IMG/VR virus record: IMGVR_UViG_3300021387_000199
Span: 70,295-134,294 of that record
DNA: 64,000 bases
Reading direction: 5' to 3' (one strand)
Source of the DNA: a virus
Lineage: Duplodnaviria; Caudoviricetes
Shown here: positions 7,464-56,097 of the stretch, one piece after another
Layout of the letters: each line of letters starts with the position of its first letter
How positions within the stretch are numbered: position 1 is the stretch's first letter
Made by a program: the position numbers and the translations under genes
The notes under the pieces: model-generated
Databases searched by the model: none
What the model was told of the DNA's origin: nothing
What the model saw: only the letters and a program-made list of their open reading frames with translations

Positions 7464-7865
7464 ATGGCTAGAAGAAGAAAACTGAGTCCTATTGTTTATG
7501 AAGCGGCAAGAATTTGTCGAGAGGATCATGCAAAGCTGCTAAGAACTCTCGCGAAAGAAGGAAAAACGTTTGAAGGATTCATAAATGAGATTAAGGAACA
7601 GTCTGACAAAACAAGAGTAAAACGTGAAGCAGAAATGGAACAGGTACGGATAAGAAGTGCGGCCCAGGCCAAAAAGATCATCGAGGAAGGCAATTATGAA
7701 AAGGCTATTAGGCTTATGGATGAATTAATAGTTGACGATCTGAATAAGAAGATGCCCACCGATCGTACAGATGAAGAATTCTTAGGAAAATATCTGGAAG
7801 AACATTATACGTGGTATCAAAAGGAATTCGATATCAATAGAAAAAGGAGGTATGTATATGGCTGA
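7464..7865 (+). CDS. hypothetical protein
   Basis: ORF with RBS, overlaps the recombinase start. Confidence 0.65.
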   Translation: MARRRKLSPIVYEAARICREDHAKLLRTLAKEGKTFEGFINEIKEQSDKTRVKREAEMEQVRIRSAAQAKKIIEEGNYEKAIRLMDELIVDDLNKKMPTDRTDEEFLGKYLEEHYTWYQKEFDINRKRRYVYG

Positions 7866-8826
7866 AGTTATCACCGGAAGAGGTGAAGCCCGGGAAGCTG
7901 TTGAAGAGAAGATTCAGAAAATGCTTGAAGGGCAGCCGGATTCTGTAGCCGGATTTTATGATTCGATTTATACATCTTCAAGTTTCAATACTCAGTACCG
8001 TTATGTTGAGTACGTGATCAATTTTCTGAAAGAAACCAAGAAACCACCCGAAGAAATAACGATGGATGATGTAAACAGATATCTCAATCGGTTGGCTCGT
8101 GGCGGAAACGGGAAACCAAAGAGATCCGGCTCGTATCTGGTGGCTATCTATTCAGGACTTAAAAAGTATTTTACGTATATGGTAAAATCCGGGCGCATAG
8201 AGAAGTCCCCAATGGAAAATGTGGAACGTCCTAAGCCAAAGCCGGCAGATCAGGTTGAGAGAACTTTTCTGAGCCCTCAGGAAGTAAATGATTGTCTGAA
8301 GAAAATTAAGGAAGAGGGTGGATATTACGAGAAGCGAAATCTAGCTATGATGATTGTCTATTTTGCCACCGGGATCAGGAACTCGGCGTTGGTCAACATA
8401 AACGTAGATAACGTCAACATTGAAAAGGGTTTTATATATGTAGTGGATAAAGGAGACAAAGCCCGTAAGTGTTATTTGAGTAAGGCAAATATGAAAATCG
8501 TTGAGGAATGGATTAAGGAGAGAGAGACCAGGAATCCAAAATCTCAGGCTTTATTCATTAATAAGAGTGGTGAACGGATCACTAATAGAGGGGCTTTGTA
8601 CGTAGTACAGTCAGTTACAGGAAAGATTGGACACATGATTACCCCTCATAAGGCAAGAGCCAGCTTTTGCACCAACACTTATAATGCCGGGGTGCCGTTG
8701 GATGTTGTATCTAAGCTGATGAATCATGCATCGACGACTGTAACTTCAAGGTGTTACGTTCTTGGACAGGAAGAGAAAGAAAAAAATAGTGTATTAAAGG
8801 CCACAGAATACATTAAGATCTTATAA
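7858..8826 (+). CDS. XerC/D-like tyrosine recombinase
   Basis: SAM-like N-terminus; TGIRNSAL (R), HKAR (HxxR), LMNH, C-terminal Y. Confidence 0.9.
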   Translation: MAEVITGRGEAREAVEEKIQKMLEGQPDSVAGFYDSIYTSSSFNTQYRYVEYVINFLKETKKPPEEITMDDVNRYLNRLARGGNGKPKRSGSYLVAIYSGLKKYFTYMVKSGRIEKSPMENVERPKPKPADQVERTFLSPQEVNDCLKKIKEEGGYYEKRNLAMMIVYFATGIRNSALVNINVDNVNIEKGFIYVVDKGDKARKCYLSKANMKIVEEWIKERETRNPKSQALFINKSGERITNRGALYVVQSVTGKIGHMITPHKARASFCTNTYNAGVPLDVVSKLMNHASTTVTSRCYVLGQEEKEKNSVLKATEYIKIL

Positions 8827-8865
8827 AGACCCGGAACGGAGATAATCCGCCGGGTCTCTTTTTTT
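8827..8865 (+). terminator. rho-independent terminator
   Basis: AGACCCGG...CCGGGTCT stem followed by a T-run. Confidence 0.75.
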
Positions 8866-8949
8866 GTCTTCAACTACCATATGTAGTATGAAAAGAAACC
8901 TCTAATACGCAACATATCCACAGCCAGAATTCACTTTTCCCCAAGTTAT

Positions 8950-9022
8950 GAACATATGTTCGATTTTTCTTGACCTCTGATTTCAGGGTGATATAATCGA
9001 AGGCGTAATCGAACAACAGTTC
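8950..9022 (+). promoter_or_regulatory. SOS-regulated promoter: two LexA (Cheo) boxes flanking a sigma-A promoter
   Basis: GAAC-ATAT-GTTC at 8950-8961 and GAAC-AACA-GTTC at 9011-9022; TTGACC at 8970 and extended TGnTATAAT (TATAAT 8992-8997). Confidence 0.8.
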
Positions 9023-9372
9023 CTCTAACACGAAAGGAGACCGCTACTATTAAGATTAATAACAACTCGCCATAATACACCGACCGTCTATAAGGTCGAC
9101 GTCTACGACACAAACCGCCAAGCCTGTTCCGTAGACGCCGGGACTAAGGGACAATAATGAATTGCTGCCCCTCTGGTCACATCATACCGCAAATCGCGGG
9201 ATTTTTCCAGAGGTTACCTGTAACCAATAATTCTGATCGAACAGGTCAGGGTTTATTTACTCTACCCTTTTCGCTCTCAGGAAGGAGGGACCAGAGCGGG
9301 GAAGGCTTCGGGTTTAATTCGAAACCATTTTTAGAATAACAGCCTATCTACAGATATAGGCGGAAGGATGGT

Positions 9373-11550
9373 ATGTGTTTTATGACGTCAGAAGAAAAGA
9401 AAGTTGAACTTGAACGTATTACTAACGAGTATTTCAAGAACGGGGGCGCGAAGATCAGCCGGATGTCTGACTCAGTCCTGAAGAAGATCGGATTTGTGGC
9501 TAATGATCCGGACGAGTTTTACTCATTAGCCGGAGAAGTATTCCTTCAGGCGCTCGACAAGTGGGACGGGGAAAGGAAATTCGACAGCCTTCTCTATGCC
9601 TGTTTGTCGAAGAGATTCAAGAGTTTCCTGACGAAGGAAAACGCCCAGAAGAGAGGAGGAGTCGATAAACCGGTTGTGTCTCTCTATCAGGAGCTCGGCG
9701 AAGATCTGACCCTGGAAGATACAATTGGGGAAGAACAGGTCATCGACCGGCTGAGCCCTGAGATGATCGACTACGTCAAGTCTTTGAATTCAACTCAGAA
9801 GAAAATTCTTCTGTACTTGACCGAAGGATACGAACCTCGCGAGATCCAGAAAAAGCTGGGTATCACATCGAAGGTTTACAACCGTGAACTCCGCGATGCA
9901 AAGGTTTACGAAAAGATCAGGGTGTTAGGACAGTCTGAAAACGCTGCAAAAGTTACGAAGAAACCAGAAGTAATTAATAAGGGAGGAAAAACTGTGGCTA
10001 TGTCTAACGGAAGGAACGAAATGACCGCTGGCACGACAACCGTCGCTACTCTTATGCAGGAAGTGAAGTGTGGGACTTTAAGAGACGACAACCCGCTTCA
10101 GAGGGCGACGGACAACTGGAATACGGAAATGAAAGGTAACCTGATCGTGACGGCTCTGAATGGTTTCGGAATTCCTGGAATCGTAGTATGCCAGCGCAAG
10201 ATCGGGGATACCTACGTGAAAGAGATTATTGACGGGCTCCAGAGATTCTCAACCTTTGCCGGCTATATCAGCAACGGTTACAGGATCTCTAAGAAGGTAG
10301 AGCGCCCGTTTATTACGTATAGCGTCTCTAAGGGAGTCGACGAGAGCGGCCTTCCTGTGTTCGAGACGAAGGAATTCGACGTTCGCGGAAAGAAGTACCA
10401 GGATCTTCCTGAGGAACTTCAGATTCGCCTCACCGGATACAACATCCACTGTGACACCTATCTTCAGTGTTCAAACGAAGATGTAGAGTACCACATCCGC
10501 CGGCTGAACTCCTCCCGGTCTATGAACCATTCTCAGAGAGGCCTGACTTTTGTCGGAACCACTCTGGCCATGGCGATCAAGAGGATCGGAAGAAAAGACT
10601 TCTTCCGCGACACCTATAAGACCACTGACTTCAAGAACGGAAATGTTCAGAGGCTTATATCTGAATCCGTTATGCTTATCAACTTCGAAGACGAGTGGAT
10701 TCCTTCGCCGGAGAAGATCGGTTCTTTCCTCGGAGAGAACGCGAAGCCGGAACAGTTTGAGGACTTCGGCGAGCTGGTCGACCGCGTGGATGAGATTCTT
10801 GACGATAATACCCGCAAACTCTTCAACATGAGAGATTCTTTCCTCTGGTTTCGGATCTTCAACGATTTCACCCGGCTCGGGATTGATGATGAGAAGTTTA
10901 ACGACTTCCTCGTGGCTTTCGATTCCCTGAAGGAAACAGAGATTAACGGTGAAACCTTCTCTTCTCTGAATACGAAGAACACCAAGGCAGCTTCCGCGAT
11001 CTTGAAGAAAATCGACTATATCGAAACTCTGATGTACAAGTTCTTCGGTGAAGAGAAAGAAGAAGAGATCGATCTTAAGTACGACGATGAGGTCGCGAGA
11101 TACGTTGAAGAATTCTATGAGGCTGAGACCGAGATTCCGGTAGCCGAAAAGAACCGCGCCAAGGTTGCCATCAAGACCGCTTTCGCCCTGAAAGGTAAAG
11201 AAGATCTGTCGGATCGCTCTGTTCAGGAGTACCTTGACGACGGAGAACTTACCTTCCCGGATCTGGAAGACGGGTTCGCGTTCACTCAGGACTTCTGCGA
11301 CGACTGGGCGATTAACGTTAATCAGAACTCTTCGATCCTGAAGGAAGACAAGCTGCCGGCCTTGGTTCGTCTGTATAAGTACGCTGTCGAATCGGAGGTA
11401 GATGATTCCCGCGCTCAGAACTGGTTCATCAATTTCGCCGATCAGGAAGCGGTTAATAAGAGGTTAGTTGGGAATTACCAGAAGGATTTTGCCCTTCTGA
11501 GAAAGGAATTCGACAACTTCGCCGCCTATGAGAAGAACGGGATTGCTTAA
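9373..11550 (+). CDS. sigma-70-like N-terminal domain fused to a DUF262 (GmrSD/ParB-like) domain
   Basis: region-2-like EVFLQALDKWDGERKFDSLLY and region-4 HTH YEPREIQKKLG; LQR..W and IIDGLQRFST (DGxQR) motifs. Confidence 0.7.
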   Translation: MCFMTSEEKKVELERITNEYFKNGGAKISRMSDSVLKKIGFVANDPDEFYSLAGEVFLQALDKWDGERKFDSLLYACLSKRFKSFLTKENAQKRGGVDKPVVSLYQELGEDLTLEDTIGEEQVIDRLSPEMIDYVKSLNSTQKKILLYLTEGYEPREIQKKLGITSKVYNRELRDAKVYEKIRVLGQSENAAKVTKKPEVINKGGKTVAMSNGRNEMTAGTTTVATLMQEVKCGTLRDDNPLQRATDNWNTEMKGNLIVTALNGFGIPGIVVCQRKIGDTYVKEIIDGLQRFSTFAGYISNGYRISKKVERPFITYSVSKGVDESGLPVFETKEFDVRGKKYQDLPEELQIRLTGYNIHCDTYLQCSNEDVEYHIRRLNSSRSMNHSQRGLTFVGTTLAMAIKRIGRKDFFRDTYKTTDFKNGNVQRLISESVMLINFEDEWIPSPEKIGSFLGENAKPEQFEDFGELVDRVDEILDDNTRKLFNMRDSFLWFRIFNDFTRLGIDDEKFNDFLVAFDSLKETEINGETFSSLNTKNTKAASAILKKIDYIETLMYKFFGEEKEEEIDLKYDDEVARYVEEFYEAETEIPVAEKNRAKVAIKTAFALKGKEDLSDRSVQEYLDDGELTFPDLEDGFAFTQDFCDDWAINVNQNSSILKEDKLPALVRLYKYAVESEVDDSRAQNWFINFADQEAVNKRLVGNYQKDFALLRKEFDNFAAYEKNGIA

Positions 11551-11631
11551 GAAACGATATACAGGGCTTGCTTCAGCCGGAGTAAGCCCTCCGGAAGAGG
11601 AGAATATTCCCAAGAGTTGAAGGCTGAGACT

Positions 11632-11663
11632 GAGGGCTTAGAAACGGAAACTTCTGAGAAATA
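11632..11663 (+). promoter_or_regulatory. phage-specific bipartite promoter, copy 1
   Basis: GAGGGCTT-N15-TGAGAAATA. Confidence 0.7.
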
Positions 11664-11684
11664 ACAGTAGAGAGGAGGAAATCC

Positions 11685-46359: not shown

Positions 46360-46865
46360 GATACGCAGGAATAAACCCGACGGACATCGTCTGTGGTACA
46401 GGTGTGGGCGTAGCTATTTATGTTCAGGGATGTGATTTTCATTGTCCTGGTTGTTTTAATCCCCAAACTTGGAGTTTCAGTGGGGGCAAAACATGGGATG
46501 AAGCACAACACAAAGAATTCCTGAGCGATTTAGCGAAACCTTATATCAAGAGGCTTTCCATATTAGGCGGTGAGCCTCTTCATCCTAAGAATTTAAAAGG
46601 TGTTGACTTACTCATTAATGAAGCAGATAATGTTAAAACTCTGAGCAAATGGATATTCTCTGGCTACACCTGGGAAGAGATCGTGTCTGATAATTCAGAC
46701 GCTGGTATCCTTAGGAAAAAGATAATTGAAGGAATAGATTATCTGGTTGAAGGTCGTTTCAAAGAAGGACTCAGAGATGTAACCCTGAAATTCAGAGGCT
46801 CTTCAAATCAGCGTATCATCGATGTAAAGAAAACTTTAGAAAAAGGAGAAGTAGTAACAGTATGA
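46356..46865 (+). CDS. nrdG: anaerobic RNR activating protein
   Basis: CDFHCPGC radical-SAM motif; LGGEP; RGSSNQR. Confidence 0.95.
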   Translation: MRYAGINPTDIVCGTGVGVAIYVQGCDFHCPGCFNPQTWSFSGGKTWDEAQHKEFLSDLAKPYIKRLSILGGEPLHPKNLKGVDLLINEADNVKTLSKWIFSGYTWEEIVSDNSDAGILRKKIIEGIDYLVEGRFKEGLRDVTLKFRGSSNQRIIDVKKTLEKGEVVTV

Positions 46866-47455
46866 AAAATGAGACATGGAATAGTTTTATCAGAAACAGT
46901 ATCCTGGCCGGACTTCTGATCGGTCTCGGAGGGTTCGCTAACCTTTCCGTAGACAACAGATACGTAGGGGCTTTCATATTTTCGATCGGACTGATCTCAG
47001 TGATCCTGCTTAACTGTAATCTTTATACTGGGAAAGTAGGGTACGCCCGTAAGATAGTGGATATCCCCAGGCTGATTGTGATGTGTGTTCTGAATGTAAT
47101 CGGAGCCGGCCTTCTGGGATTCGCCACCAACTCGATCGTATCTTCAACGGCTCAGGAAATCATGAATAAGAAGATCGACAGACCGTTGATTCAGACTTTC
47201 ATAATGGCTGCCATCTGCGGCGCCTTGATCTATTTGGCGGTTGAATTATTCAAGAGAGGGCATAATATTCTTCTGATTGTCATTCCGGTCTTTACGTTCG
47301 TCGCCATAGGGGCCGACCACTGTATAGCTAACGCTTACTATTTCGCTGCCGGGTCTATGTATTCGGTTAAGGCTCTGATATATCTTCTGATATGTATTCT
47401 GGGGAACGCCGCCGGATCTCTGGTTGTCTCACTTCTTCAGGGTGAAAAGTCGTGA
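46862..47455 (+). CDS. formate/nitrite transporter family protein
   Basis: LYTGK, HCIAN and LGN motifs; multiple TM segments. Confidence 0.85.
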   Translation: MKNETWNSFIRNSILAGLLIGLGGFANLSVDNRYVGAFIFSIGLISVILLNCNLYTGKVGYARKIVDIPRLIVMCVLNVIGAGLLGFATNSIVSSTAQEIMNKKIDRPLIQTFIMAAICGALIYLAVELFKRGHNILLIVIPVFTFVAIGADHCIANAYYFAAGSMYSVKALIYLLICILGNAAGSLVVSLLQGEKS

Positions 47456-47623
47456 CCATGATAATAGTAGGCACGGACTGCGAAGACTGCCGCCATTGTA
47501 CAGCGATTGACGACGAAAATCCGGCAAGGATTAAGGTCTACTGTAGTTACGATGATAAGTACCGATGGTACGGTCAATGCATTCCTTGTGAGAATAAGGT
47601 CAAAGTGAAAACGAGTGATGATT

Positions 47624-47650
47624 AAGAGAGACTTCGGTCTCTCTTTTTTT
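47624..47650 (+). terminator. rho-independent terminator
   Basis: AAGAGAGAC-TTCG-GTCTCTCTT followed by a T-run. Confidence 0.85.
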
Positions 47651-47661
47651 ATGCCCAGATT

Positions 47662-47693
47662 GAGGGCTTCCCTGAACAAAAAAATGAGAAGTA
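47662..47693 (+). promoter_or_regulatory. phage-specific bipartite promoter, copy 4
   Basis: GAGGGCTT-N15-TGAGAAGTA directly after the terminator. Confidence 0.7.
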
Positions 47694-48401
47694 GTACCTG
47701 AAGGAGGAAAAAAATAATGAGAGTACTGAAGTTACTGATATATACGTGTTTAATTGGCGCGGCGCTGGCTTTTGTCCCCAAGCTGCTCAGGCCGAAGAAG
47801 TATCACACAATACCTTGGAGGACTTATGAGAGAGAAGATTCCTGAGTTCAGGGTAAGGCCGGGAGTTACCAAACATCAACTTTACCAGGCCGGTTTTACA
47901 GACGAAGGAGATCACTGGACTTATCAACAGTTTCTATATGAAAGATTTGTTTTAGTCAAAATCCTAATCTCTAAAGAAGATTTCTTTTGTACGGCAAAGA
48001 TTATAAGAACAGACACCGGTGGTTTTTACTCAGCGTTTTATAACACGATATTTGGGCCAAGGAATCTGGTAGCTGAAAAGGTGACAGAAAGATATTGCCG
48101 ACTGCTCAGGAGACTTAATAGAGCCGACGTGATTGAGTTTGTAGAGGAGAAGAATAAAGTACATGATTGATTGGCATTATTGCAAGGATGAGTTGCCGAA
48201 GAAATCTGGAAAATATTTGGTTAGTAAGTTAGGGGTTTGGTCGAACGTTGATGAGAAATACGTTTTGTATGACGAGGAATTTCGTCAGGTTGAGATAGCT
48301 CTATTTGTCGTCGACATAGGATTATTCGATACCAGACATCCAAAAAGTGTCTATGCCTGGGCAGAACGACCAAACCCGGCGAAATACTAAGTGCCGAGGA
48401 T

Positions 48402-48433
48402 GAGGGCTTAATCAGCTCAGGTTTTGAGAAATA
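48402..48433 (+). promoter_or_regulatory. phage-specific bipartite promoter, copy 5, upstream of the tRNA
   Basis: GAGGGCTT-N15-TGAGAAATA. Confidence 0.7.
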
Positions 48434-48479
48434 GGTATTGAGAGGAGGGCAACATGGTTTCGACAGAAACTATCCTCTC

Positions 48480-48552
48480 CGCCCCGTCTTCTAGTGGTCA
48501 AGGAAAATGGGCCCTAACCCCATGAACGTGGGTTCGAACCCCACCGGGGTGA
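48480..48552 (+). tRNA. amber suppressor tRNA (anticodon CUA) with a tRNA-Glu-type body; CCA not encoded
   Basis: acceptor CGCCCCG/CGGGGTG, D arm TTCT-AGTGGTCAA-GGAA, anticodon stem ATGGG/CCCAT with loop CC-CTA-AC, variable region GAAC, T arm GTGGG-TTCGAAC-CCCAC. Confidence 0.9.
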
Positions 48553-48616
48553 TTGACAGTGTAGATAGGCAGACGTTAGCTCTGCCTCTAACTATTTCTG
48601 AAGAAAGGAGTAAATC

Positions 48617-49174
48617 ATGAGCCGTTTTTCAGGCAAATGCGATCTTTACGATCATTGTGGCGATTATACGGATTCTCAACTTCAGGAAACACGTTTTTAT
48701 ATAGGAAGGAATATAGTTCCTCTGAAGATTGAAACACAGAAAGATCTCTCGCCATACTATCCCCATTTAGTGAGTGTGGCCGGTTGTTCTGATGGAGTCT
48801 CAGTTGTACATTTTACAGAAGATTCATTTATAGATAGAGAAGAAGCTGAACATCTGACGTGGAAACTTGACTCTTTGAAGAAGTATTGCCGGAAGTGTAA
48901 GAGGAGTCATGTCCCTTATGATGAAGAAGAAGCAATCGAGAAAGCGATTTTCTTTCATGAAACGGGCGCTGACGTCGACAGGGAGATGGCTCGTAGAGTC
49001 GGGGAATCCGGGGATAAGGCAACAATTGAAGGGCTTCATGATAGCCTTCACGAATACTACCGAAATAATCTTTTTGAAGAAATGGTTAGACTCGGTTGGC
49101 CTGAAGAACCAGCCGATTATTGGATCTGGAGAGATTTTGAAAGAATTAGGAGGTATAGCAATGGGAAATACTGA
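48617..49174 (+). CDS. hypothetical phage protein
   Basis: RBS AAAGGAG; MSRFSGKCDLYDH start. Confidence 0.7.
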   Translation: MSRFSGKCDLYDHCGDYTDSQLQETRFYIGRNIVPLKIETQKDLSPYYPHLVSVAGCSDGVSVVHFTEDSFIDREEAEHLTWKLDSLKKYCRKCKRSHVPYDEEEAIEKAIFFHETGADVDREMARRVGESGDKATIEGLHDSLHEYYRNNLFEEMVRLGWPEEPADYWIWRDFERIRRYSNGKY

Positions 49175-52559: not shown

Positions 52560-54806
52560 TTGAGGACATTACTGATTTTCAGGGGATCCCCAGGTTGCGG
52601 AAAATCTACGTTCATCGCGAAGAATTACCTTACGCCGTACACTCTCTGCCCGGACACGATCAGGCAGCAGTTACAGGGATGGGTTCAGCTGCCAGATGGT
52701 AAGCTGGGTATTTCCGGTAAGAACGAGAAGAAGACCTGGGAGATCCTTTTTGATTGCCTTGAGCGCCGTATGCAGAACGGCAGTTTCACGGTAATAGACG
52801 CGACGAGTTCTAAAGCCACTGAAATGAACAAGTATAAGAAGTTGGCCGACGACTATAAGTACCGGATCTTCTGCGTAGACATGACAGATGTACCGATCGA
52901 CGAGTGCAAGCGTAGGAACCGACTGAGGGCTGAGTATAAACAGGTGCCGGATGAGACGATCGACAAGATGTACTCCAGATTTGCCACTCAGAAGATCCCG
53001 TCTGGTATCAAAGTGATAAAGCCTGAAGAACTGGATTCCATCTGGCTTCAGGAATTCGATCTTTCTTCCTATAAGAAGATCTGCGTGATCGGCGATGTTC
53101 ACGGTTGTTATTCAGCGCTGTCTAACTACATCGGGGAAATCTGTGATGATTATTTTTACATCTTTGTCGGCGACTACTTCGACAGAGGAATTGAGAACGC
53201 CGCCGTATTTCGATTCATTCAGGAACATATAGACAAGAAGAACTTCCTTTTCCTTGAAGGTAATCACGAGAGACATCTGAAGGATTACGGGGAGAATAGG
53301 CAGTCCAGATCGTGGGTGTTCAATAGTCTGACAGCGAAAGAGTTTAGCGAAGCCGGCATTTCCCGGGTAGCCGCCAGAAAGATGTACCATCGCTTCGGTC
53401 AGGTGGCTTGGATCAAGTACGGTGATAAACATTTCATAATCTCACACGGCGGATTAGCCCGCTGCCTGACAACAGGAATCGCGTTCACTAAGACCTGTAC
53501 AGATCAGTTCATAGCCGGCGTTGGACAGTATGCCGACATGGATCTGTGCGCTGAGTCTTTCTCTAAGACCTGTCCCGACAATTACTATCAGATCTTCGGA
53601 CATAGGAACATCATAGAGTCTCCTGTTCAGGTTGACAATCACAACTACTGCCTTGAGGGTCAGGTTGAATTTGGCAAGTACCTTCGCTGTGTAGAAATCT
53701 CTGAAGTGGGAACTAAAACCATAGAAACAAAGAACGACGTCTGGAGGCCCCTCCCTGAAGAGAAGAAAGAGGATGTGGTTCCTACTAAAACGGCTACTAC
53801 GGTAGAAGACTTCGTGAACTGGGCGAGGAAGAACCGTCGGTCTGTAATAGAGAAGAAATTTGTTCTTCAGGAAGGATCCGACAGTGAAGGCCACATTTCC
53901 TCGTTCAACTTTAGCCGTACCGCTTTCGAGAAAGGTGTCTGGAATAATATCACGACCAGAGCCCGCGGATTGTTCATCGACACCGACAAAAAGACGGTGT
54001 TTGCCAGATCGTACGACAAGTTCTTTAAGACCAATGAAGTCGACGCCACGAAGGAAGAAGCTCTGAGGCAGAACTTGAAGTTCCCAGTCACAGCGTATAA
54101 GAAGTACAACGGCTATCTGCTTCTGGCTTGCTACAATCCGTATCAGGATCGAATTGAAGTCGCCAGTAAATCCACCTTCGATGGGCCATTCGCGGAAAAC
54201 GGTAGAGCTGAGTTGTTGAGGCTTCTTTGTGAAAACGGCACGTATGATTATTTCAAGCAGTATCTGAAGGAACTGAACGTGACAGCGGTGTTTGAGTACG
54301 TAGATATAGAACGCGACCCCCATGTCGTAGAAGCCGAGAAGAGCCAGTTGATCCTTCTCGATCTTGTTTGCAACAAGCTAGAGTTTGAGAAGATTTTTTA
54401 CGACAGCCTTGTGGGACTTTCTAAGAACGTCGGCATCCCGTGTAAGGAAGTGGCCTGTACGTTCAATTCCTGGCGCGAGTATTACGACTTCTATAGAACT
54501 GAGAGAGACAAGGAGATTCCTTATAGAAATCTTCCGGTTTCAGAGCAGTACGAAGGATACGTTCTCGAAGACGCCACCGGATTCCAGTGGAAGCTGAAAT
54601 CGAATTACTACAACTTCTGGAAGTCGATGAGGTTCGTACTGAAGTCGTGTGTAAAGAAAGGCTACGTAGACAACACCAGCGGGCTCACGACACCTCTGGC
54701 GAATGATTTCTACGCTTTCTGTAGAGGATATTACGGCAAGGAGGATCCGCCGGCAGACATTATTTCCGCAAGAAAAGAGTTTTATGGATTAAGCGACAAG
54801 CGCTGA
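52560..54806 (+). CDS. polynucleotide kinase / metallophosphoesterase / RNA ligase fusion (RNA repair)
   Basis: GSPGCGKS; GDVHG, GDYFDRG, GNHE; ARGLF, DKFF, KYNG (ligase motif I), EGYV. Confidence 0.85.
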   Translation: MRTLLIFRGSPGCGKSTFIAKNYLTPYTLCPDTIRQQLQGWVQLPDGKLGISGKNEKKTWEILFDCLERRMQNGSFTVIDATSSKATEMNKYKKLADDYKYRIFCVDMTDVPIDECKRRNRLRAEYKQVPDETIDKMYSRFATQKIPSGIKVIKPEELDSIWLQEFDLSSYKKICVIGDVHGCYSALSNYIGEICDDYFYIFVGDYFDRGIENAAVFRFIQEHIDKKNFLFLEGNHERHLKDYGENRQSRSWVFNSLTAKEFSEAGISRVAARKMYHRFGQVAWIKYGDKHFIISHGGLARCLTTGIAFTKTCTDQFIAGVGQYADMDLCAESFSKTCPDNYYQIFGHRNIIESPVQVDNHNYCLEGQVEFGKYLRCVEISEVGTKTIETKNDVWRPLPEEKKEDVVPTKTATTVEDFVNWARKNRRSVIEKKFVLQEGSDSEGHISSFNFSRTAFEKGVWNNITTRARGLFIDTDKKTVFARSYDKFFKTNEVDATKEEALRQNLKFPVTAYKKYNGYLLLACYNPYQDRIEVASKSTFDGPFAENGRAELLRLLCENGTYDYFKQYLKELNVTAVFEYVDIERDPHVVEAEKSQLILLDLVCNKLEFEKIFYDSLVGLSKNVGIPCKEVACTFNSWREYYDFYRTERDKEIPYRNLPVSEQYEGYVLEDATGFQWKLKSNYYNFWKSMRFVLKSCVKKGYVDNTSGLTTPLANDFYAFCRGYYGKEDPPADIISARKEFYGLSDKR

Positions 54807-54864: not shown

Positions 54865-56097
54865 ATGTAGAACTTCAACGAATTCAAGGAATTATTGCAA
54901 CTGGTAACCGGGGATGATAAAATGTCTGTGGCTGATATCGAACGACTGCAACTTGCTCAAGAAAGGAGTTCGATATTGAAACAACATACCCACAAGATTT
55001 GGGAGTCAGGAGGTTATTTTAACACATATATCCCAGACCCTTCTGCTAAAAGAGGGTACCGTCTCAAAAGGAGCCGTACAAGAGAGGGATTAGAAGAAGC
55101 AATAATAAGGCAACACAAAGAAAATGAAGCAAATCCGACGATTGACGAAGTATTCGAAGAGTGGAACAACAAAAAGCTCGAAAACGGAAGTATCGTAGAA
55201 GCAACACATCTCAGGAATAAATATTGTTACGAAAGACACTTCGGTGAATTTGGCAAAAGAAGAATCAGGAACGTTCGTCCCGTAGAATTCCAAGATTTCT
55301 TAGAATCACAGATCAAAATACATCATATGAAAGCCAGGGGTTTTGCTAATCTGAAGGGAATAGTAAGAGGTTTTCTGAAGAGGGCGAAAAAGAATGGCTA
55401 CATTTCCTTCAGCGTAGAAGAAATGCTCAATGATATGGACGTTACTGATCGGCAATTCAATAGGAATCGAAAAAGGGATGACGAAGAAATCTTCTATGAT
55501 GATGAGTTAGACAGAATCATCGAAGCGATTAGGGAAGCCCCTTATCCCAATAACCTGGCTGTAGCGCTGATGTTTGGAACCGGAATGAGGGTTGGGGAAG
55601 TAGTTGCCTTGAAACATTCAGATTTTCATGGAATGTCGGTCACTATCCAGAGATCTGAAACCCGCTATAGGATGCCCGATGGGAAGTACAATTACCTGAT
55701 TCAGGATCATCCTAAGACAGAGGCCGGCTTTCGTACCATTGTCATTCCAGATAGTTTTAAATGGGTTGTGGACAAGCTGAAAACAAGCAACCCGTTTGGG
55801 GAATGGGTATTCGTAAAAAGGGATGGAAAAACCAGAATAACCACGAACACTATCCGTACAAGGATCAGAAGCTTGTGTAAAGAACTGGACATTCCTATTA
55901 GATCATCCCATAAGATCAGAAAAACATATGGTTCAATTCTTCTGGACAGCAATCTTGATTCAAAGTTCATTCAGAGTCAGATGGGCCATGCCAGTATTCA
56001 GATTACAGAAAACTTTTATCACAAAGATAGGCGCAGAATCGACCAGAAATCGCGCATTATCAATTCTGTGGAAGCTTTCAAAAAAAGTGCAATCTGA
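54865..56097 (+). CDS. int: tyrosine integrase; the second codon is TAG
   Basis: RBS AAGGAGG + ATG TAG AAC in frame; TGMRVGE; HKIRKTY; MGH..I..T..FY. Confidence 0.9.

Follow-up and report, generated by a model that had tools for sequence, protein, structure and literature searches.

A predicted LexA-controlled promoter ahead of a sigma-DUF262 fusion gene in a TAG-recoded temperate phage, and its possible connection to a suppressor tRNA

How might a temperate phage whose late genes are written in an altered genetic code keep them closed in a lysogen, and what signal might open them? The question is raised by a locus of IMG/VR virus record IMGVR_UViG_3300021387_000199 (Duplodnaviria; Caudoviricetes), where a terminator behind an integrase gene, a strong sigma-A type promoter flanked by two LexA-type boxes, and a leader of about 370 nucleotides (nt) precede a gene for a sigma-like protein fused to a DUF262 domain. 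The stretch analysed, referred to as the window, comprises 64,000 nt, bases 70,295–134,294 of a 134,294-bp record of linear class and ~83% estimated completeness (CheckV); coordinates are those of the window unless the record is named. The best explanation overall, to which a moderate probability is given, is that host LexA shuts an early promoter of a temperate phage of at least ~134 kb, and that this promoter would drive the sigma factor, through it a set of bipartite promoters, and through these a tRNA with anticodon CUA, tRNA(CUA), which reads TAG. The first element of this explanation, LexA control of the early promoter at 8950–9022, is held with good confidence.

The features of the locus are collected in Table 1. 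Among 115 promoter-like sites listed for window positions 1–60000, where the count of such sites is nowhere above that of shuffled sequence, the promoter between the boxes is the only one to match the consensus at 11 or more of 12 positions. Box 1 ends 8 nt before the −35 hexamer and box 2 begins 14 nt after the −10 hexamer, which corresponds to about +6 to +18 for a predicted transcription start near 9004; judged from these positions relative to −35 and −10, both boxes lie where a bound repressor would be expected to occlude a sigma-A promoter. Extended by its flanks, box 1 (TGAACATATGTTCG) agrees at 13 of 14 positions with the palindromic core CGAACATATGTTCG of the Firmicutes LexA consensus CGAACRNRYGTTYC (PMC2248561), and motifs of the GAAC-N4-GTTC type are given as the LexA site of B. 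subtilis and Clostridia (PMC4234289). The boxes are very probably host LexA operators. The original prediction had placed two perfect boxes astride a strong sigma-A promoter, just after a terminator and about 370 nt upstream of a sigma-like gene; the boxes, the promoter, the terminator (a hairpin with a U run, missed by a simple terminator scan and found by folding with shuffle comparison) and the distance (~380 nt from −10 to the probable start codon at 9382) were all borne out, with the correction that box 2, while completing the straddling arrangement, lies past the −10 hexamer, unlike the spacer position seen in relatives.

Table 1. Features of the LexA-boxed locus and of the sites to which it may be linked (window coordinates).
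Feature	Position	Strand	Evidence
Tyrosine integrase	7852..8826	+	Pfam Phage_integrase 2.7e-29; phrog_1 4.8e-37
Intrinsic terminator of integrase gene	8827..8866	+	Hairpin −20 kcal/mol, z −3.8, then U run UCUUUUUUU
LexA (Cheo) box 1, GAACATATGTTC	8950..8961		Perfect GAAC-N4-GTTC
Sigma-A type early promoter, TTGACC-16-TGaTATAAT	8970..8997	+	11/12 with TG extension
LexA box 2, GAACAACAGTTC	9011..9022		Perfect GAAC-N4-GTTC half-sites
Leader hairpin, possible counterpart of relatives' leader hairpin	9101..9136	+	−13.4 kcal/mol, z −2.3; homology tentative
Candidate phage-type promoter upstream of sigma gene (possible autoregulation)	9304..9337	+	E 0.0065, 14.4 bits; position weight matrix 20.8 bits
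Sigma-DUF262 fusion open reading frame, 725 amino acids	9373..11550	+	phrog_1740, homolog Pfam matches, fold comparison
First phage-type bipartite promoter	11628..11667	+	Starts 78 nt past sigma-DUF262 stop
Phage-type bipartite promoter before tRNA(CUA)	48398..48437	+	Motif end 46 nt ahead of tRNA
tRNA, anticodon CUA (reads TAG)	48480..48552	+	ARAGORN; Rfam tRNA 50.5 bits

Near-identical DNA occurs in contigs of animal gut metagenome runs, mostly bovine, and no RNA run is among those listed. Of the variants, only that of run X3 was used, the contigs of X5, X6 and X9 spanning the promoter region partly or not at all. Against window positions 8823–9212 the X3 contig shows 32 differences in 390 positions (8%) and one gap; of the 28 differences listed, five fall within 8950–9022 (8956, 8957, 8967, 9002 and 9003), the first two in the N4 centre of box 1, leaving the half-sites, box 2 and both promoter hexamers (−35 and −10) free of listed changes. 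This constancy of the half-sites provides good evidence for operators, incomplete because four differences are unlisted. The leader behind the promoter is mosaic, with 9213–9462 replaced by other sequence in X3 and 9031–9163 in X5, so that promoter and boxes stay in place while parts of the leader are swapped among close variants.

Conservation over longer evolutionary distances was followed through the product of the fusion gene (P0001), which has 45 homologs at E ≤ 1e-5, most of ~720 residues. Scans for close relatives with the single protein yielded one locus in viral contigs, none in genome contigs and two in metagenome contigs; retrieval with an alignment of 18 homologs gave 80 loci, kept out of 102 relative-encoding stretches in large viral contigs, and 58 from bacterial genomes, which together with locus L001 make 139 loci at 26–50% protein identity. 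A dual-box arrangement, defined as two boxes with at most one mismatch each, 15–70 nt apart, plus a −35-like hexamer, precedes the gene in 61 of the 139 loci and occurs at or after the gene start in none; after dereplication at 90% nucleotide identity the figures are 42 and 0 of 76 groups, drawn from 350 kb of upstream sequence and 614 kb of the remainder, beginning at the gene start. In the 81 viral loci, the density of perfect boxes is 0.23 per kb upstream and 0.04 per kb elsewhere. The order in relatives is stereotyped: box 1, 7–10 nt, TTGACA, 0–4 nt, box 2 in the spacer, then a TATAAT-like hexamer. Box 1 of the window takes the same position as in relatives, the box-to-box spacing is mostly 28–34 nt in relatives and 61 nt in the window, and the window locus accordingly reads as a variant of the family layout.

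These data bear on the possibility that the box pair is a functionless chance occurrence. Single GAAC-N4-GTTC motifs do arise by chance, as shuffled windows contain 1.05 on average and reach three or more in 14 of 100 cases; the window contains three, the third (48524–48535) falling in the T-arm of tRNA(CUA), and the whole record four, the fourth inside an open reading frame (ORF). For the pair itself a chance pattern is excluded by its 61-nt separation set against an expectation of 1.05 per window. The pair moreover flanks the best promoter, its layout recurs in more than half of the dereplicated groups and upstream only, and its half-sites are unchanged in a variant differing at 8% of positions, while recent shared ancestry as a source of artefact clashes with protein identities of 26–36%; the probability left to chance is accordingly close to nil.

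The 58 bacterial-genome loci belong overwhelmingly to Lachnospiraceae, with a few metagenome-assembled genomes (MAGs) labelled otherwise, and include Eisenbergiella tayi, E. porci, Lacrimispora, Lachnospiraceae bacterium CE91-St56 and 28-4, Eubacterium plexicaudatum ASF492, Lactonifactor, and MAGs of Blautia and Roseburia; 18 of 301 sampled Lachnospiraceae species genomes carry a homolog. Since two loci lie deep within complete chromosomes and one viral IMG/VR record is classed as a provirus, the phage family is, by its genomic placement, temperate, and the host of the window phage is probably a species of Lachnospiraceae or other Clostridia. In all five host genomes in which lexA was located, which carry related prophages and not the window phage, three boxes with at most one mismatch to GAAC-N4-GTTC (for example CGAACATATGTTTG and CGAACACACGTTCT) lie within ~215 nt upstream of lexA.

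Phage repressor–operator pairs usually diverge between immunity groups. That phages with ~30% identical proteins all keep the host motif consequently argues for recognition of the boxes by a host factor and not by a phage repressor, and the identification of the boxes as the Firmicutes Cheo/LexA operator, as originally predicted, is strongly supported by the conserved layout, the motif at the hosts' own lexA genes and the half-sites of the strain variant. The same evidence bears on the alternative that the boxes serve a phage-encoded or other non-LexA repressor sharing GAAC-N4-GTTC, with induction independent of the host SOS response. Three points speak for such a regulator: locus L001 carries a Cro/C1-type helix-turn-helix (HTH) gene near its integrase, the Bacillus thuringiensis phage GIL01 encodes a LexA-like regulator (PMC6182141), and a non-LexA repressor could lie outside the incomplete record. 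A six-frame search of the 134-kb record, in which controls worked, found no match to Peptidase_S24, LexA_DNA_bind, HTH_3, HTH_26 or HTH_19, and phages with 26–36% identical proteins all retain a motif equal to the lexA operators of their hosts, which leaves a non-LexA repressor distinctly improbable. ORFs upstream of the integrase are mostly without known function and include DUF932, DUF5688, a PC4-like protein and an AcrIC5-like domain; most small ORFs matched no known family in family scans and may include a small repressor of unfamiliar type. The lack of a repressor match fits, by analogy, a GIL01-like dependence on host LexA. In L001 the HTH gene, on the opposite strand, and a MazF/PemK-like toxin gene lie between the integrase and the LexA-boxed promoter (L001:1352-2381), and the corresponding interval of the window contains nothing like them.

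The gene that this promoter would drive has a start conserved across relatives, probably Met4 at 9382. Its product comprises an ECF-like (extracytoplasmic function) sigma part with sigma2 and sigma4 domains (residues ~5–190), a disordered linker (182–215), a ParB/Srx-like DUF262 domain (217–383) and a helical C-terminal part. The sigma profile phrog_1740 matches residues 28–167 (4e-7); among the 18 homologs, Pfam finds Sigma70_r2, Sigma70_ECF and Sigma70_r4_2 in seven each and GmrSD_N (= DUF262) in 17. An AlphaFold2 model (mean predicted local distance difference test score 80) has helices in its N-terminal part, then the disordered linker, then an alpha/beta domain with further helices behind it. 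In domain-level comparison of this model, residues 7–90 resemble the N-terminal domain of SigE (Z 8.8, root-mean-square deviation (rmsd) 2.7, 76 aligned), residues 5–189 the ECF sigmas H, L and E (Z 7.1–7.7, with an rmsd of ~18 because the two domains sit differently), residues 217–383 the N-terminal domains of ParB/Noc (Z ~7, rmsd ~3), and the longer C-terminal region BrxU (Z 8.2) and SspE (Z 7.8); the usable matches all come from this comparison by domain, as Foldseek with the whole 725-residue model returned none at E ≤ 0.001. The sigma-like character assigned to the gene in the original prediction thus stands, by profile, homologs and predicted fold; the fusion to DUF262 had gone unseen. 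In L001 and in several genomes, sigma and DUF262 are encoded by two neighbouring ORFs, whereas many homologs of ~720 residues have them fused. Because the linker contains an in-frame site resembling a ribosome-binding site (RBS), AAGGGAGG, before a GTG at 9994 and an ATG at 10000, the DUF262 part might also be produced alone, making two products possible. A tblastn search with the sigma domain (E ≤ 0.01) found no match in 72,556 plasmid records or in a cultured-phage collection, the presence of plasmid pBS32 among them being unchecked. A second Sigma70_r2 match is absent from the record, as is another sigma from the window ORFs scanned.

A candidate set of targets for this sigma factor is formed by a bipartite motif, GAGGGCTTA-N15-GAGAAATA, which occurs at 12 sites in the record with fixed spacing, a two-block geometry typical of the sigma70 family. 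Read against the ORF map, the sites precede genes in the correct orientation; besides those following the sigma gene and preceding tRNA(CUA) (Table 1), sites lie ahead of the minus-strand tRNA cluster and late blocks (record 53802 and 55167; window 61198). Around the promoter of tRNA(CUA), no sigma-A-like site of at least 9/12 is present on the plus strand of 46819–48729. A position weight matrix (PWM) scan gave 14 matches of at least 14 bits and 0–1 in five shuffles, a circular comparison as the sites found had trained the matrix. In the whole record, a calibrated sequence model (R1) built from the 12 training sites recovers these and one more, at 9304–9337, which is weaker than the other 12, lies ~40 nt ahead of the sigma start codon and falls within the stretch 9213–9462 that is replaced in close variant X3. 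For the closest viral relative, which has a 50% identical protein, R1 finds five matches in the record (best E 5.6e-5), and in three records at 29–33% protein identity it finds none; such a distribution, seen across these few genomes, would be expected of a motif that follows the sigma factor.

That the sigma-DUF262 protein reads the bipartite promoters is inferred from such placement, and a competing view accepts the LexA promoter as real but assigns the protein a role in DNA handling, defence or anti-defence through DUF262, with another phage or host factor serving the bipartite motif and the tRNA, so that SOS and the code switch would not be directly coupled. BrxU, SspE and the N-terminal domains of ParB, to which the DUF262 part is similar, are not transcription factors; P0001 taken alone has no Pfam sigma match; what ties the motif to sigma is position, plus joint occurrence in a single relative; and a relative without recoding carries the same LexA–sigma module. 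This view must be set against the detection of no other sigma-like protein in the record, the start of the first bipartite promoter directly behind the sigma-DUF262 stop, the sigma domains found in homologs by Pfam and by fold comparison, and the sigma70-type geometry of the motif itself, in the light of which a separate reader appears unlikely, if much less so than a non-LexA repressor.

What the tRNA would make readable is apparent from the layout of the record. The genome is two-armed, with a plus-strand arm at ~56.8–126.4 kb of the record and minus-strand blocks at 2–52 kb and 126.7–133.6 kb. The plus-strand arm carries the integrase, the sigma-DUF262 gene, replication and nucleotide genes (AAA_24 ATPase, methyltransferase, DnaB-like helicase, primase, DNA polymerase, NrdD/G, dUTPase), an RNA ligase/kinase and a second integrase, and its long ORFs are almost all without TAG; the integrase ORF in translation code 11 (7852–8826) has no in-frame TAG, the single TAG sitting in its upstream extension. 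The minus-strand blocks encode portal, protease, endolysin and structural proteins, and in a record ORF map with TAG read through, in-frame TAG is concentrated there: an ORF of 6811 codons (record 2248–22683, outside the window) contains 83 and appears only on readthrough, and other late genes, portal and endolysin included, contain 1–15 each. With TAG read through, the portal aligns with positions 5–500 of 501 of its PHROG profile; glutamine was placed at TAG for reading purposes only. TAG-laden late genes, a TAG-poor early arm and tRNA(CUA) therefore mark a TAG-recoded phage with a suppressor tRNA, of the kind reported by Borges et al. (10.1101/2021.08.26.457843), whose early genes are in the standard code. 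A derivation of tRNA(CUA) from the phage's own tRNA-Gln(UUG) is not claimed, as the two align poorly. An RBS-like GAGAGGAGGG and an ATG follow the bipartite promoter ahead of this tRNA, opening a 23-codon frame (48454–48525) that enters its 5′ half and is probably a leftover gene start or a chance frame.

Joined together, these elements suggest a cascade for which DNA damage would be the likely trigger. In a lysogen, LexA dimers on box 1, beside the −35 hexamer, and on box 2, over the start region, would block host RNA polymerase; on DNA damage, active RecA would promote self-cleavage of LexA and the promoter would fire, yielding a transcript of the 370-nt leader and the ECF-like sigma with its DUF262/ParB-like domain. 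The sigma factor would then steer RNA polymerase to the bipartite promoters of plus-strand middle genes, minus-strand late and tRNA blocks, tRNA(CUA) and possibly the sigma gene itself, where the site at 9304 may add positive feedback; only once tRNA(CUA) had been made would the TAG-bearing late genes become translatable. Bipartite promoters after the sigma gene and before the tRNA, together with the confinement of TAG to late genes, make these later steps a plausible fit to the sequence, and the full cascade down to the tRNA is rated as evenly poised between right and wrong. If the cascade operates, an SOS signal would change the genetic code of the cell and the late genes of the prophage would be readable only after DNA damage. 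A broader proposition, that host LexA is the sole lock on lysogeny throughout the phage family and that its cleavage frees a sigma factor joined to a ParB-like NTP-binding domain, which also switches on the suppressor tRNA in recoded members, is offered tentatively and with some doubt.

Several observations weigh against this account. LexA binding, SOS induction, transcript starts, the reader of the bipartite promoters and the timing of the tRNA are all inferred from sequence. Box 2 (CGAACAACAGTTCC), perfect in its half-sites, breaks RNRY at two of its central four bases, and its place downstream of −10 departs from the spacer position of relatives; 34 of the 76 groups show no dual-box promoter in the 2.5–3 kb fetched, some of these flanks ending at contig ends. 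The best bacterial-genome match is 36–39% identical. With the record ~83% complete, a phage repressor could sit in the missing part, and the search for one covered five Pfam families. The absence of an above-threshold Pfam sigma match in P0001 counts here as well, as do the middling structural Z scores, which nonetheless agree with the sequence evidence; and since R1 was trained on the sites found, only its 13th match and those in the record of the closest viral relative are independent. In 18 of the 61 dual-box loci, the interval from the LexA promoter to the sigma gene contains ordinary tRNAs, mostly Gln-UUG and Met-CAU, whose expression in those phages would be under direct SOS control, not via sigma. 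Lastly, locus L089, in the complete chromosome of Lachnospiraceae bacterium CE91-St56, has both the dual-box promoter and the gene, and the surrounding 180 kb lack any tRNA gene and have a high coding density in code 11. Because this relative carries the module with no sign of recoding, the module is not tied to recoding and would not have evolved for the code switch; it reads as a general feature of the phage group that predates recoding, the latter having been added in some members. The originally predicted chain from SOS through sigma to suppressor tRNA is supported in part.

In SPO1, gp28 and gp33–34 exemplify phage sigma factors that replace the host sigma and time middle and late transcription, and a sigma factor timing transcription would be common to such cascades and the LexA-led one preferred here. 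To our knowledge, SPO1-type lytic phages do not place their first sigma under the control of host LexA and have no sigma joined to DUF262; nor do we know of any described sigma-DUF262 fusion. The closest tested precedent by analogy appears to be SigN (ZpdN) of B. subtilis plasmid pBS32, which is derepressed by DNA damage, reads a second promoter of its own in positive feedback and drives the regulon of the element (PMC6751061). The window likewise has a LexA-boxed sigma-A promoter, a candidate self-promoter (9304–9337) and a regulon-like set of 12 bipartite promoters, and would work alike with no detectable sequence relationship; unlike SigN, its sigma is fused to a DUF262/ParB-like domain, two boxes surround the promoter, and the element is a temperate phage of Clostridia-type hosts whose regulon apparently includes a suppressor tRNA and TAG-recoded late genes. 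Next in closeness is GIL01, a small temperate tectivirus without a classical CI, in which a LexA-boxed early promoter and the host SOS repressor keep lysogeny, with gp7 as a necessary co-factor and late genes activated via the LexA homologue gp6 (PMC4551915, PMC6182141). The window phage shares an early promoter with probable host LexA boxes, and five Pfam repressor families gave no match in its ~83% complete record; the step after LexA would here be a sigma factor, and no counterpart of gp7 or gp6 was noted, neither having been searched for.

Recoded gut phages are described as bearing TAG in late structural and lysis genes, not in integrase or replication genes, together with a tRNA(CUA), and their code change has been proposed to gate lytic genes (10.1101/2021.08.26.457843; phAss-1, PMC10607447). 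TAG-bearing late genes, a TAG-free integrase and tRNA(CUA) make the window phage alike; the difference lies in the upstream trigger, LexA and sigma, proposed for it here, since neither the Borges et al. preprint (10.1101/2021.08.26.457843) nor the phAss-1 paper (PMC10607447) mentions LexA, sigma or SOS. No description of a LexA–sigma circuit in Lachnospiraceae prophages is found among the literature matches listed, and one may exist elsewhere in print. A LexA-gated sigma factor of a mobile element is thus of a known kind, its link to stop-codon recoding appears so far undescribed, and the cascade as a whole is coherent and unproven. For recoded phages the sequence offers a concrete chain from the DNA-damage repressor of the host through a phage sigma factor to the tRNA, which would also explain a response of large gut prophages without a CI-type repressor to DNA-damaging drugs. 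Named strains that appear to be in culture, Eisenbergiella tayi DSM 26961 (with locus L087), Lacrimispora sp. HJ-01, Lachnospiraceae bacterium 28-4 and Eubacterium plexicaudatum ASF492, have prophages with the conserved module, which brings the first two steps of the circuit within reach of laboratory tests.

The leader between promoter and gene matched nothing in Rfam (8800–9450). Its full 372 nt fold slightly better than shuffles (z −2.1), and as this barely exceeds chance, no riboswitch or attenuator is claimed. A simple terminator scan marks a terminator-like hairpin at 9229–9253, and a 60-amino-acid ORF at 9157–9339, without family match, is taken as non-coding. In many relatives a hairpin lies a few tens of nt past the LexA-boxed promoter (L087:2623-2676, L013:2150-2217, L063:1075-1138, L006:2200-2250), composed of an A run, an outer stem of 8–20 bp whose sequence varies by phage, an internal loop, a conserved inner stem of 4–5 bp and a short loop; read from the opposite strand, it would be a hairpin with a T run behind it. 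The 14-nt core motif is present, with at most three mismatches, in 59 of 151 loci, and all 16 examples chosen fold likewise (z −1.9 to −8.1, single-sequence folds); the window's version is weak. In eight relatives' loci Rfam detected one tRNA only and no hairpin family, and RNAalifold found no consensus structure for the MAFFT-aligned leader hairpins, since their outer stems cannot be aligned by sequence.

Among further observations, same-strand tRNAs between the LexA promoter and the sigma gene are found in L001 (2646-2718), L013, L044, L063–L066, L077, L079–L083, L102 and L140, among others. About 1.5 kb downstream of the sigma-DUF262 gene of L055, a tRNA with anticodon UUA (L055:6231-6303), which would read TAA, aligns end to end with the tRNA-Gln(UUG) that sister phages carry at that position (L054:6220-6292, L051:6220-6292) and looks like a Gln tRNA turned ochre suppressor. 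In the window, the AcrIC5-like domain belongs to a 133-amino-acid ORF directly before the integrase (7464–7865; Pfam AcrIC5, 28.2 bits at a cut-off of 27, E 2.2e-6). At the far end of the plus-strand arm, a 748-amino-acid RNA ligase/polynucleotide kinase-phosphatase resembling tRNA-repair enzymes (52560–54806) adjoins the second tyrosine integrase, of 400 amino acids (54895–56097).

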